DNA from: Escherichia coli
GTDB taxonomy: Bacteria; Pseudomonadota; Gammaproteobacteria; Enterobacterales; Enterobacteriaceae
Assembly (NCBI RefSeq): GCF_003018115.1
Contig: NZ_CP027458.1
Reading direction: 5' to 3' (one strand)
Length of the DNA: 64,000 nt
Position numbers: made by a program. Shown here piece by piece: positions 49,301-52,300 of this stretch. Each line of letters begins with the position of its first letter. Positions within the stretch are counted from its first letter, which is position 1.

Positions 49301-52300
49301 TTCCTGTGTGATATGTTCTGTCACATAGCCTTCCGTATCATAGCGGCAGGCGCCGGCTTTCATTGCGCACAGATAACTTTCCGAACGGGTGATGGCTTTC
49401 AGCGCCCGGCTGAGTTTTTTATGAGAGAGCGGGATATTTCGCTGAGACACCTCATCCAGTAAAACCTCCCGGATACCGCAGGCAAGAAGCCGGGGCGTGT
49501 TACCGTCAAACAATCCCGGCCACCAGGGTTTCAGAGTGTTCACCGCCTCATCCAGCGAGGGCAGCGTCAGATAAATGGACAGCGCCTGTCTGGCCTGTGC
49601 TTTCTTCGCCGCCAGCTCTGCTTCCCGGGCAGCCTTCTCCGCCAGTTTCTGCTTTTTCACCTTCCATTTTGGTGGCGTGGTGACATTGATGATGGTTTTC
49701 CGGCTCCGGGTCGGTGTTTCCACGTCGGTTCTTCGTTTCAGTGTCAGTACTGGCCGTTTCTGCTCTGTCATAACTCACCTGCCCTCACCGGTATCCGTTG
49801 TTCATATCAGCGAAGACGCTCAAGAGTCAGTACATCCACCGTGGCTTTCCGGTTTCCCTCATCAGAAATATCCACTTCTCCCACAACCTGAACTTTATCT
49901 CCGGCTTTCAGGGCCAGCGGGCGCCATACTTCATCATCGACATCAATGACAATACTTCCTGATGCATCACTGAGTTCAAAATGATCCTCTTCGGCTGCCA
50001 GTTGCTTCACTATCTGACCATTCAGCGTCACACCGGTCCCCTCCGTCATGCCACTCACCTGAGAAACAGTGATCACATTATTTTTAGCCTCATCCCGGAT
50101 TTGCTGATCTGATTTTGCCCATACCCCCTGAACGAACATTCCCGTAATGGCTGCCACCAGTAATATTTTTTTCATCATCTGCTCCTGTTTTTTCCTGAAT
50201 GCGCTCTGATTTAAACAAAAAGACTTTCACAGTTCATCCGCTTTCTTGCGCTTCCTGCTACAGGGCCATCACTCCCAGCACAGCGAGATGACAGACATAA
50301 AATACCGGGAAAAAGTCTGCCGGCCAGAAACGGGCAGCAGGCCACCGGATACCGGAGACCATCCTGACGACCATGTATGTCACTAACACACCACTGACAG
50401 CGGCAGTCACGCTGTCCTGCAGGTTAACGAGAGCAACGACCGGGAAAAGACAAAGCGCCAGCATGCTCCGTACAGAAAGGTGCGTCGTCCTGTATATCCT
50501 GTGACAGAGCATCAGTAATATGATCCCGACAGCACCGTAACTGGTGGAAGATAACGGGAACCAGAGAACCAGAAGTGTAAGTGCACTGACTGACCATACC
50601 AGCGAGTGATATTCACACCATTTCAGCATCTGTGCTGCCACCGCAAAGGCAAACAGAATATTGCCCTCATACCACGGATATCCCGCCAGAAAGTACCCGA
50701 ACTGCGCCACAACAGCCCATCCCCACAGGCGGTTTACGGACGCCTGACGGATATGCTCATACCGTGACAGATTCAGTCCCCAGACCAGCGCAAACAGCGG
50801 AAACGCGCCCCGCCCGACCAGAAACATCCACGTCTGCTCCAGATGCAGAATGCGGTTTGCATGGTCCAGCACCATCAGCACCAGTGCCACCGTTTTGATG
50901 ATATCCCGCTGTCCGGGTGACCAGACCAGCAACGACTGCAACCGGGTATCGGTCCGGGCAGCCAGTGAATCGTTACGTGTCGTGTTCGTGTTATCCGTTG
51001 TCATCAGCGTTTGTCTTCCTGTATCAGTCTCCGCCCAGGGTTTTCTCTTTCTGCAGGTCACGGACCATATCCCGCTCCATCTGCTGAAGTCGCTCCTGCA
51101 GCAGATTTTCCCGGGCAACCTCCCGGACAGCGTCCTGCACCCGTTGAGACTCACGCAGCACACTTTCCGGCAGCGCAGTTTCCCGTTCTGATGACGAAGC
51201 CCTGTCCTGCTCCTGCCCGGCAATAGCCCTGACAGCCTGCTCTGTTTTACCATCCGGCTGGTCAGGTTTTTCCTGTGCCATTTTTCTGACAATCTCATCC
51301 GCACGGCGTTCCGTTTCACGACGGATGGCCTCTTCAGCCTGCCGCTGTGCCAGCACCTCTGCCGTGACCGGCTCACCGTTTCCGGCCCCCGGCTGGACGC
51401 TGTTGTCCGGGATATCCCCCCACACGCGACCACCGGTGATGGCACCGGGATTCCACGGACGACCTTCACCGGCGATTCTCACCACCACACCGCTGTCGGG
51501 GTTATCACGGGCAATCCGGACACCATCCTGCATATTATCAGCCAGCAGGCTCTCGCCGTTACGGCTGCCCTGCAGGGCCACAAACTGCGCATCCCCGCTG
51601 CCTTTCACCCGGCCTTCACCACTGAATCCCCGCAGCCCGTTTCCGTCATCCGTGGTCAGCGGGTTCAGCCAGATACCGGCAGACTTGCCGTTACGGTCAA
51701 AAGCCGGCAGGGCCACATACGGCTGCGGATATTTGCGCCCCGGTGCAATAAACCGTGCCGGACTGTCGCCCCCGGCCAGTCCCGCCTGGCGGAGAACAGC
51801 ACGGCCAGCTGCCACGTCCCGCAGCTCCCGTGCCGTACTGAACAACCGCTCTGCATTCATGACCTCCCGGTCCGGTTTCGGCTCCAGCACATCGTGGGCA
51901 GTTCCTTTCTGTACGGCTTTGCTGATGGCATCCGTCCAGCCCTGACGGTTATCGGTGTACACCTGCACATGCTGCTTCATACGCGACAGGGCCACATAGG
52001 CTGACTCAAAGCCGGCCATCTGTTTCCGGTTACCTTCCGAGCCTTCAAGCGCGATGGCAAAGGTTTCACTTGCCCCCTGTGCACCGTGAGCGGTGATGGC
52101 ATAGGCAAGGTCAATATGTTGCTCTGCCCGCTCCTGAGCGGGGCGAATCACCCGGGTCTGCTGTCCGTCCGACAGCGTGACACTGTCACCGGAAACCGCT
52201 GTCACCGTCCAGACGCTGTTGGCCACATAACCGCGCTCCCGGTCACTCTTCGTGAAGCGCATCCGGTCACAGGTTCCCACCCGGATGGTGTCCGGGGTGT

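Follow-up and report, generated by a model that had tools for sequence, protein, structure and literature searches.

The junction between traX and finO in F-like plasmids is a known and recurrent variable cargo slot, and in the Escherichia coli sequence analysed here (a window of 64,000 nt from contig NZ_CP027458.1) it holds a gene of the BOF family (NirD/YgiW/YdeI superfamily). The identity of this gene and its status as cargo are nearly certain, and it is best explained as a horizontally acquired, foreign passenger. Its product is a single-domain BOF protein of about 11 kDa, strongly acidic, with a predicted OB fold and a predicted Sec signal peptide. With regard to its role, the whole explanation that is somewhat favoured here is that of a cargo gene of the slot, expressed with the tail of the tra operon, whose product would play an envelope-stress role in the periplasm similar to that of SipA, YdeI, and YgiW. 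The relevant features of the window are the following:

49214..49771, minus strand: finO (FinOP fertility-inhibition RNA chaperone), intact, 185 aa; NF010317, 341.6 bits
49772..50257, minus strand: lineage-specific slot segment of 486 nt, from the traX stop to the finO start, delimited by alignments
49807..50178, minus strand: BOF-family gene, 123-aa precursor, supported by the ORF, Pfam/NCBIfam, AF2, Foldseek, and RefSeq
50116..50178, minus strand: coding region of the predicted Sec signal peptide, residues 1–21, MMKKILLVAAITGMFVQGVWA, with cleavage predicted before KSDQ
50182..50186, minus strand: Shine-Dalgarno sequence AGGAG, 3 nt 5' of the first ATG of the BOF gene; the minus strand reads ...ACAGGAGCAGATGATG...
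50258..51004, minus strand: traX (pilin acetylase), upstream neighbour and left boundary of the slot; TIGR02755, 313 bits
51024..56294, minus strand: traI, a further neighbour of the BOF gene

The traX–finO Junction

A first-pass annotation of this DNA had placed a secreted YgiW-like gene between traX and finO, and had taken plasmid F, where finO follows traX closely, as the state of comparison. The intercalation is confirmed: the three genes lie on the same strand and finO starts 35 nt past the BOF stop codon. Plasmid F does have finO close to traX: its junction is empty and finO begins there 54 nt past the traX stop; nevertheless, F does not represent the general situation. A 286-aa α/β-hydrolase of the UilS family (a lactonase homologue) fills the slot in about 56% of the finO-positive E. 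coli genomes (1,915), and therefore intercalation at this position is the rule and not an oddity. The comparison of the interval among plasmids, which had been proposed as a check, was carried out and yields three states: empty (F-type), UilS-family hydrolase, and BOF gene.

The limits of the slot are sharp. In the junction alignments, homology stops at the traX stop codon and returns some 10 nt ahead of the start codon of finO, and the 486-nt segment has no homology to either the empty F-type or the UilS/orf286-type junction. This is the arrangement of a cargo slot, with a same-strand gene between the traX stop and the finO start, homologous flanks, and a non-homologous interval. Sister plasmids with 95% identical flanks hold the hydrolase in place of the BOF gene. 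The GC content of the segment is 47.5%, against 55–60% in the flanking genes, and the values of GC and GC3 are 48 and 45% for the BOF gene, 55 and 64% for traX, 56 and 63% for finO, and 60 and 66% for traI. No signature of site-specific insertion was found, as neither remnant sequences nor repeats are common to the boundaries of the three junction types; replacement by homologous recombination in the flanks is thus likelier than transposition or an integron-like capture.

The hydrolase (orf286/UilS of R100-type IncF plasmids) is a positional analogue of the BOF gene and not a homologue. It occupies exactly the same slot in the same orientation and is likewise non-essential cargo, although its fold and function are unrelated to those of the BOF protein (NF047920 UilS lactonase equivalog, 505 bits; cut-off 400), and it is common (1,915 of 5,426 E. 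coli genomes, versus 26 for the BOF gene). The slot is not discussed in "Five Shades of F," and literature searches on the BOF gene (by RefSeq accessions, by ygiW together with traX/finO, and by the 933W L0136 homologue) returned nothing relevant. Positions 49100–51100 of the window are 100% identical to NZ_CP129265.1. Colinearity of the whole window with that sequence was excluded by megablast: only 38771–64000 aligns, in two blocks (99.0 and 99.99% identity), and the remainder is rearranged.

The Product and its Family

The ORF is intact, starts with ATG, and encodes 123 aa. In RefSeq/PGAP the start is placed one codon downstream, at 50175, giving 122 aa (WP_000722534.1); the databases already carry an annotation for this gene. 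The product matches the Pfam BOF family PF04076 (E 1.2e-15; 57.9 bits, cut-off 25.8) and NCBIfam NF033674 (84.7 bits, cut-off 35), and both scores, being above the curated cut-offs, assign it to the BOF superfamily by sequence. The AF2 model (mean pLDDT 90.5) predicts the five-stranded OB-fold barrel of the family, with strands at residues 49–59, 66–71, 74–80, 95–105, and 111–121. The top PDB match of this model in Foldseek is E. coli YgiW (1NNX), with a TM-score of 0.83 (normalized by the target), an rmsd of 1.8 Å, and 31% identity, and the family-conserved residues G54, D71, G74, D81, G100, D103, and V116 are all kept. The evidence from ORF, family models, and fold thus agrees with the 123-aa BOF gene, predicted to be secreted, of the first-pass annotation. 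A search for defence systems with PADLOC gave no match for this gene.

The N-terminus (MMKKILLVAAITGMFVQGVWA followed by KSDQ) displays the three regions (n, h, and c) expected of a Sec signal peptide and has no lipobox cysteine, as read from the sequence, and the predicted cleavage site aligns with the VWA/AFA–KSD junction of the homologues. Both observations fit the signal peptide that is typical of the superfamily, the periplasmic location being a prediction. Residues 1–20 have low pLDDT in the AF2 model. The mature protein would have 102 aa, with a computed pI of 4.4 and a net charge of about −9.

YgiW, the founding BOF protein, likewise pairs a signal peptide with one OB barrel of about 100 residues in the periplasm, and it is the best PDB match by sequence (E 1.5e-8) as well as by fold. 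However, the identity is low, the plasmid protein has an extra N-terminal helix (KSDQQIRDEAK, residues 24–32), and ygiW is a chromosomal gene whereas the plasmid gene sits inside the tra operon. The score with the YgiW/YdeI subfamily model TIGR00156 is 55.1, far from the cut-off of 108.15, and with the YdeI equivalog NF007471 it is 24 bits, against a cut-off of 179; the two scores exclude the plasmid protein as an orthologue of either. The likeness to these proteins that had been noted from the sequence holds at the level of superfamily and fold, but not at that of orthology. The superfamily also includes Salmonella YdeI (OmdA) and Vibrio cholerae SipA, which share the compartment predicted for the plasmid protein.

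The closest relatives, with full-length identities of 44–55%, are chromosomal proteins of Acinetobacter (A. pittii, A. lactucae, and others; 48–55%) and proteins encoded on metagenome contigs next to DoxX. These relatives and the plasmid protein have in common an N-terminal helix, AKSDQ...EAK..NVVTV, and the motif LKAGDKV. On the other hand, the plasmid protein has diverged by about 50%, shows a 2-residue insertion, and has lost the KPTD motif that its subfamily keeps in the β4–β5 loop (DISDEGNRKATVD). The genomic context of the Acinetobacter and metagenome genes is also unlike the plasmid slot.

Distribution and Origin

The BOF gene is present in 26 of 5,426 complete E. coli genomes, 3,416 of which carry finO, and on 23 of the 72,556 plasmids of PLSDB. 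The possibility that it belongs to the conserved backbone of most F-like plasmids, which would have contradicted the cargo status initially proposed, is clearly not borne out by these frequencies. All copies are on plasmids and are at least 99% identical, and their sources are Shiga-toxin-producing E. coli (STEC), cattle, sheep, deer, or bongo; STEC1588 is one of the strains with such a plasmid. The cluster of the protein at 90% identity comprises 167 member sequences. The gene is confined to one small lineage of IncF plasmids (FIA/FIB/FIC-type) of ruminant-associated and Shiga-toxin-producing E. coli.

Elsewhere on the mobile elements of STEC, BOF genes are again met as cargo, namely on other plasmids and in 48 phage records, mostly of Stx or other Escherichia phages (phrog_1230). 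The BOF protein of Stx-converting phages (933W L0136, Min27 gp77) is a similar case of apparent cargo on an STEC mobile element, but it is only 36–37% identical to the plasmid protein and was independently acquired, and its gene is located at the end of the prophage, next to a hok/mok-type locus, and not in a tra operon.

Expression and Sequence Constraint

Promoters were searched for at two levels of stringency. A strict sigma-70 scan of 49000–51200 gave no sites, and a relaxed one (at least 8 of 12 positions) found none in the 242 nt upstream of the BOF gene. A candidate PhoP box in the upstream sequence was rejected, its best match being only 8 of 12. No intrinsic terminator was found on the minus strand along traX, the BOF gene, and finO. 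As neither a promoter nor a terminator belonging to the gene itself could be recognised, co-transcription with the distal tra genes and finO is inferred. RNAs spanning the junctions around the gene fold no better than shuffled sequences (z −0.96 and −0.89), and no Rfam family reaches the gathering threshold within 49772–50257. Elsewhere in the window, Rfam matches correspond to AS-traI, CopA, sok, AS-traG, and AS-pc02.

The genes of YdeI and SipA are induced by two-component systems; in contrast, there is neither a regulator gene near the plasmid BOF gene nor a recognisable box. Dedicated or adjacent two-component control, of the kind exerted by QseBC, PhoPQ/PmrAB, or VC1638/39, was not found in these scans, which cover proximal sequence, so that control from a distance is possible.

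Among 14 copies, the BOF gene has no synonymous and five non-synonymous SNPs, in addition to one frameshift, versus 20 synonymous and 17 non-synonymous SNPs in traX plus finO of the same plasmids (Fisher p = 0.049), a comparison of low power because it relies on 14 copies and five SNPs, and in which recent polymorphism inflates dN/dS. This pattern suggests weak or relaxed constraint and counts against strong current selection on the protein. Nonetheless, the ORF is intact in 25 of the 26 genomes, and the sole frameshift allele, found in the linear, split assembly of strain 2013C-4282, could be an artefact of assembly. Codon 113 has changed twice independently, from T to R and from T to S.

Proposed Role and Alternative Explanations

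In the favoured explanation, the gene would be transcribed, most likely as the tail of the tra operon, together with finO. After export to the periplasm, the protein would behave as V. cholerae SipA, Salmonella YdeI, and E. coli YgiW do, binding cationic antimicrobial peptides and/or an outer-membrane partner (a porin or OmpA). The result would be a modest gain in tolerance to envelope stress caused by antimicrobial peptides, peroxide, or metals. Within the family, antimicrobial-peptide tolerance, peptide binding, and outer-membrane-protein partners have been demonstrated for the BOF proteins studied, YdeI and SipA (PMC6370654). SipA binds polymyxin B, LL-37, and OmpA, YgiW cross-complements SipA, and the interactions cited include those of YdeI with OmpD and of YgiW with OmpF (PMC6370654). 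By homology, a stress-tolerance role is plausible for the plasmid gene, while the precise mechanism is put forward tentatively, at somewhat less than an even chance. The acidity of the mature protein (pI 4.4) fits the binding of cationic ligands, and is the one indirect sign that it may bind peptides and an outer-membrane protein and confer tolerance to peptides, H2O2, or Cd. Several observations count against the stress-tolerance explanation, namely the signs of relaxed constraint described above, the YgiW/YdeI scores below cut-off together with the divergence of the β4–β5 loop, and the absence of a nearby stress-responsive regulator, sigma-70 promoter, or PhoP box. Moreover, because the host chromosome already carries ygiW and ydeI, the added benefit of the plasmid copy may be small.

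The main alternative, considered unlikely, is that the protein is a nearly neutral hitch-hiker and that the extra RNA upstream of finO alters the amount or stability of the finO mRNA, and with it the self-repression of transfer. The orf286 gene of R6-5/R100 reportedly affects finO mRNA, and the BOF gene is found in the slot and orientation of orf286, 35 nt from finO, with neither a terminator nor a promoter of its own. The substitution pattern with its frameshift allele and the rarity of the gene point in the same direction, as does the presence of unrelated genes in the slot of different plasmids, which indicates that no particular protein is needed there. However, a neutral passenger accords poorly with an ORF that is broken only in one incompletely assembled record, and with the conservation of the Shine-Dalgarno sequence, the signal peptide, and the family residues in a protein that differs by about 50% from even its nearest relatives. 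The junctions, in addition, show no unusual RNA structure (z about −0.9), in disagreement with an effect of the inserted RNA.

Another explanation, rather improbable, links the protein to conjugation itself. By binding OmpA or a porin in the periplasm it would modulate mating-pair stabilisation or exclusion, or else it would offset the envelope permeability and the sensitivity to bile and peptides brought about by the F-type secretion system. The position of the gene within the tra transcription unit, without its own promoter, is consistent with this, and an active F T4SS is said to sensitise E. coli to bile salts, which would also be in its favour. Further support comes from the binding of BOF proteins to OmpA, OmpF, and OmpD (PMC6370654) and from OmpA being the recipient partner of F TraN, an interaction with which TraT interferes (PMC7690428). 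Yet the BOF gene is absent from more than 99% of F-like plasmids, which conjugate all the same, conjugation genes adjoin none of the homologues whose context was examined, and the signal of weak constraint applies here too.

A still more doubtful proposal along these lines is that synthesis of the protein is restricted to an active tra operon and that the envelope of the donor is its place of action. Its binding to OmpA or a porin, which TraN-type adhesins use as receptors, could tune mating-pair formation or self-exclusion; alternatively, in the gut of ruminants, it could shield piliated, secretion-active donors from bile and from the antimicrobial peptides of the host. If this were true, the traX–finO slot would be a plug-in site for alternative "ecological adaptors" co-regulated with transfer, an AHL lactonase and an envelope protector being two examples. 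Finally, that the ORF is a product of chance or an annotation artefact, as might be thought in a G+C-rich region where many ORFs of more than 100 aa overlap on both strands, is refuted by the significant Pfam/NCBIfam matches, the confident AF2 model, and its Foldseek match to YgiW, besides the Shine-Dalgarno sequence, the signal peptide, and the full-length Acinetobacter homologues.

Significance

The BOF gene is an ordinary, rare passenger gene of putative function, and its importance is modest. Neither outcome regarding its role would alter what is presently understood about conjugation or about this protein family. At the level of the plasmid family, the traX–finO junction in E. coli is a three-state slot, which is empty in F, occupied by a UilS-family lactonase homologue in about 56% of the finO-positive genomes, and occupied by the BOF gene in less than 1%. 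BOF genes have been captured by mobile elements of STEC at least twice independently, once in this plasmid lineage and once in Stx phages. If the main effect of the insert is on finO expression, the finding would have a bearing on the tuning of transfer repression. If, instead, the protein raises tolerance to host antimicrobial peptides or bile, the gene would contribute in a small way to fitness, or as a virulence-adjacent factor, on the plasmids of LEE-negative-type STEC, and also a convenient marker of their lineage.

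A BOF gene between traX and finO

The ORF flagged by the first-pass annotation lies where that annotation had placed it. Its neighbors were identified by Pfam and NCBIfam matches, and all four genes are encoded on the same strand:

51024-56294, minus strand: traI, upstream of the BOF gene (Pfam/NCBIfam)
50258-51004, minus strand: traX, upstream of the BOF gene (TraX_Ftype, 313 bits)
49807-50178, minus strand: BOF gene, ORF of 123 aa with ATG start (ORF listing)
49214-49771, minus strand: finO, downstream of the BOF gene (FinO NF010317, 341.6 bits)

The ORF product matches the BOF family of Pfam (PF04076; E 1.2e-15, 57.9 bits, cut-off 25.8) and, in NCBIfam, a domain model named "NirD/YgiW/YdeI family stress tolerance protein" (NF033674; 84.7 bits vs cut-off 35); the sequence AGGAG is found three bases 5' of the start, and a chance ORF is excluded. 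The only meaningful sequence match in the PDB is E. coli YgiW (1NNX, E 1.5e-8). The AlphaFold2 model, obtained with 50 homologues as input (mean pLDDT 90.5), starts with 20 disordered residues, which are followed by a short helix at 24-32 and then by a barrel of five strands. Its top Foldseek match is again 1NNX (TM 0.83 normalised on target, rmsd 1.8 A, 31% identity); the lower-ranked ones are generic OB folds (Ten1/Stn1, RPA, and tRNA-synthetase anticodon-binding domains). The N-terminus, MMKKILLVAAITGMFVQGVWA/KSDQ, reads as a textbook Sec signal peptide with no lipobox, and the mature protein of 102 residues is acidic (pI 4.4, 20 D+E vs 11 K+R). By sequence, predicted fold and signal peptide the protein belongs to the BOF superfamily in the broad sense, in agreement with the secreted YgiW/YdeI-like OB-fold assignment made initially. 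Membership in the YgiW/YdeI subfamily proper (TIGR00156, 55 vs cut-off 108) and identity with the YdeI equivalog (24 vs cut-off 179) have been ruled out. The gene is already machine-annotated in RefSeq (WP_000722534.1, with the NF033674 name), and no literature mentioning it was found.

A rare occupant of a variable slot

Three states of the traX-finO interval have been distinguished. The first is an empty slot with a gap of about 54 nt, as in plasmid F, where finO starts 54 nt past traX, in line with the first-pass annotation. In other plasmids the slot contains an alpha/beta-hydrolase of 286 aa, which presumably corresponds to the classical orf286 of R100/R6-5, and the third state is the BOF gene. 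In alignments of the window with the two other junction types, homology ends at the traX stop codon and returns only some 10 nt upstream of the ATG of finO, the 486-nt interval (49772-50257) being unrelated among the three types over its whole length. The hydrolase is absent from the window and is found, for example, in Escherichia fergusonii pRHB33-C07_2 (comparison locus L002:2279-3139). It scores 505 bits (cut-off 400) against NF047920, the equivalog model of the quorum-quenching AHL-lactonase UilS (PMC11633161).

Among 5,426 complete E. coli genomes, finO is present in 3,416 and the slot hydrolase, almost always plasmid-borne, in 1,915; the BOF segment occurs in 26, in copies at least 99% identical and on plasmids without exception. 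The full traX-BOF-finO order was found in 23 of 72,556 PLSDB plasmids, while the flanks are matched by more than 5,000, and the plasmids whose flanks come closest after these (about 95%) have the hydrolase in the slot. Sources of the carriers are human STEC cases, O103:H2 among them, and cattle, with O111:H8 and O22:H8 among the isolates, as well as sheep, beef, a deer and a bongo. Given this rarity, the plasmid location and the near identity of the copies, the BOF gene is therefore lineage-specific cargo and not part of a conserved backbone. The first interpretation is thus borne out in part. The gene is secreted BOF-family cargo that is both intercalated and rare, but the intercalation itself is not unusual: an occupied traX-finO site is the norm among F-like plasmids, in which this slot is already known to vary.

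Host plasmid and surrounding genes

The region 38771-64000 aligns in two megablast blocks (99.0% and 99.99% identity) with p_STEC1588_2 (NZ_CP129265.1) of E. coli STEC1588, a conjugative IncFIA/FIB/FIC plasmid that is 100% identical over 49100-51100 and carries ehxCABD, epeA, iha, YadA-like adhesins and a complete F-type tra region; the remaining window is rearranged relative to it. Outside tra/rep the window lacks colinearity with this best-matching record (7684-20051 and 28087-38723): the ehx-containing block has 98% identity and others 90-98%, with gaps of several kb. In this plasmid family, therefore, the half with the virulence genes is mosaic, the tra-finO-rep half being 99-100% conserved.

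Several other features of the window deserve mention:

4217-4948, minus strand: second traT-like ORF (243 aa), well away from the tra operon; over 4233-4961, 96% identical at the nucleotide level to the traT in the tra region of NZ_CP129265.1
59457-60188, minus strand: usual traT, between traS and traD
47657-48133, minus strand: gene for a secreted staphylococcal-nuclease-like thermonuclease, downstream of finO (Pfam SNase, E 1e-29)
45986-46075, plus strand: CopA, IncFII copy-number control
46883-47038, minus strand: sok (hok/sok)
48295-48437, plus strand: AS-pc02, between the nuclease gene and finO
53369-53445, plus strand: AS-traI, antisense RNA inside tra genes
62757-62842, plus strand: AS-traG, antisense RNA inside tra genes

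Like the BOF gene, the thermonuclease gene is AT-rich (GC 46.5%, GC3 39%), which makes it a probable further accessory gene; the hydrolase-type E. fergusonii plasmid has it, and an empty-junction one (L003) lacks it. The RNAs are Rfam matches at gathering threshold, and none in the window scan at that threshold overlaps the BOF slot.

Origin and constraint

The composition of the BOF gene (GC 48%, GC3 45%) is distinct from that of traX (55%, 64%), finO (56%, 63%) and traI (60%, 66%). In searches covering 5.8 billion clustered proteins and 1.84 billion representatives, the best relatives outside the plasmid lineage have 44-55% identity, and only 22 representative clusters reached E <= 1e-10. 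They are encoded on the chromosomes of Acinetobacter pittii, A. lactucae and other Acinetobacter (48-52%) or on metagenome contigs with a conserved LysE-VTT-DoxX-BOF neighborhood. These relatives share with the plasmid protein the N-terminal helix motif AKSDQ..EAK.NVVTV, whereas the latter differs by an insertion of two residues and by loss of the subfamily KPTD motif in the beta4-beta5 loop. The gene was therefore not transferred recently from any sequenced genome.

In 14 aligned copies of the slot with its flanks, the five SNPs of the BOF gene are all non-synonymous (A9V, G43D in 4 copies, S70N, T113R, and T113S), versus 20 synonymous and 17 non-synonymous in traX plus finO of the same plasmids (Fisher p = 0.049). 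SNP density rises from BOF (1.3%) to finO (2.0%) and traX (3.5%), and the low BOF value would fit one recent capture event. The polymorphism points to relaxed or weak constraint, to be taken as a caution against an adaptive reading of the gene and not as its refutation because the sample is small and the one frameshift allele comes from a poorly assembled record. Decay of the gene is argued against by an intact ORF in 25 of the 26 genomes and by the retention of all family-conserved residues. Codon 113 (Thr, 49840-49842) lies in the beta4-beta5 loop, the usual ligand-binding loop of the OB-fold, and has changed to R and to S in different plasmids; this double change without synonymous polymorphism could be due to chance or to relaxed constraint, or it could hint at diversifying selection, which is less likely than relaxed constraint.

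Expression and possible roles

No sigma-70-like promoter was detected for the BOF gene, either by a strict scan or by a relaxed scan of the 242 nt upstream, nor a PhoP box in those 242 nt, and neither the traX-BOF nor the BOF-finO junction shows an intrinsic terminator. Without promoter or terminator signals, the gene is most simply read as co-transcribed with finO and the distal part of tra; the BOF protein would then be produced while the tra operon is active, be exported by Sec and act in the periplasm. The function of BOF proteins is known in outline only. In Vibrio cholerae, periplasmic SipA binds polymyxin B, LL-37 and OmpA, is required to survive peptide, H2O2 and Cd stress, and is cross-complemented by E. 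coli ygiW; YdeI-OmpD and YgiW-OmpF interactions have also been reported (PMC6370654). Judged by homology and by its acidic surface, the plasmid protein would most likely act in a comparable way, and the stress function suggested by the first-pass annotation may be understood in these terms.

Alternatively, the main consequence of the insert may be an RNA-level effect on finO mRNA. Such an effect of orf286 in R6-5 was reportedly described by van Biesen and Frost in 1992; no unusual RNA structure was found in the traX-BOF and BOF-finO junctions. The protein might also have a conjugation-linked role, either binding outer-membrane proteins relevant to TraN/TraT or protecting secretion-active donors. 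Its position and the binding of outer-membrane proteins by the family suggest this; however, transfer genes adjoin none of the homologues whose context was examined.

BOF genes on other mobile elements

Homologues with 36-45% identity occur in 48 phage records, mostly Stx-converting or other Escherichia phages, as phrog_1230, including 933W L0136, Min27 gp77 and VT2-Sakai; the homologue of the Stx-converting phages is 36-37% identical to the plasmid protein. In the two contexts examined, Min27 (L036:3358-3702) and an O157:H7 record typed as plasmid with phage-like genes (L010:5001-5345), the gene directly follows a hok/mok-type locus. Of the tblastn matches, 44 fall on Pantoea megaplasmids. 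In the IncFII plasmid pKAM645_4 of Klebsiella quasipneumoniae (L011:915-5288), a different BOF gene directly follows an ECF sigma/anti-sigma pair and a cluster of DoxX, carboxymuconolactone decarboxylase-family, MsrP and MsrQ genes, in what looks like a periplasmic oxidative-stress island carried by the plasmid. The conserved neighbor of the closest metagenomic relatives of the window's BOF protein (L004, L005, and L028) is likewise DoxX. Since the phage homologue is separate from the plasmid one, BOF genes have been captured by STEC mobile elements at least twice. As for the alternative occupant of the slot, a lactonase homologue that more than half of the F-like tra regions of E. coli carry seems to have received too little discussion.
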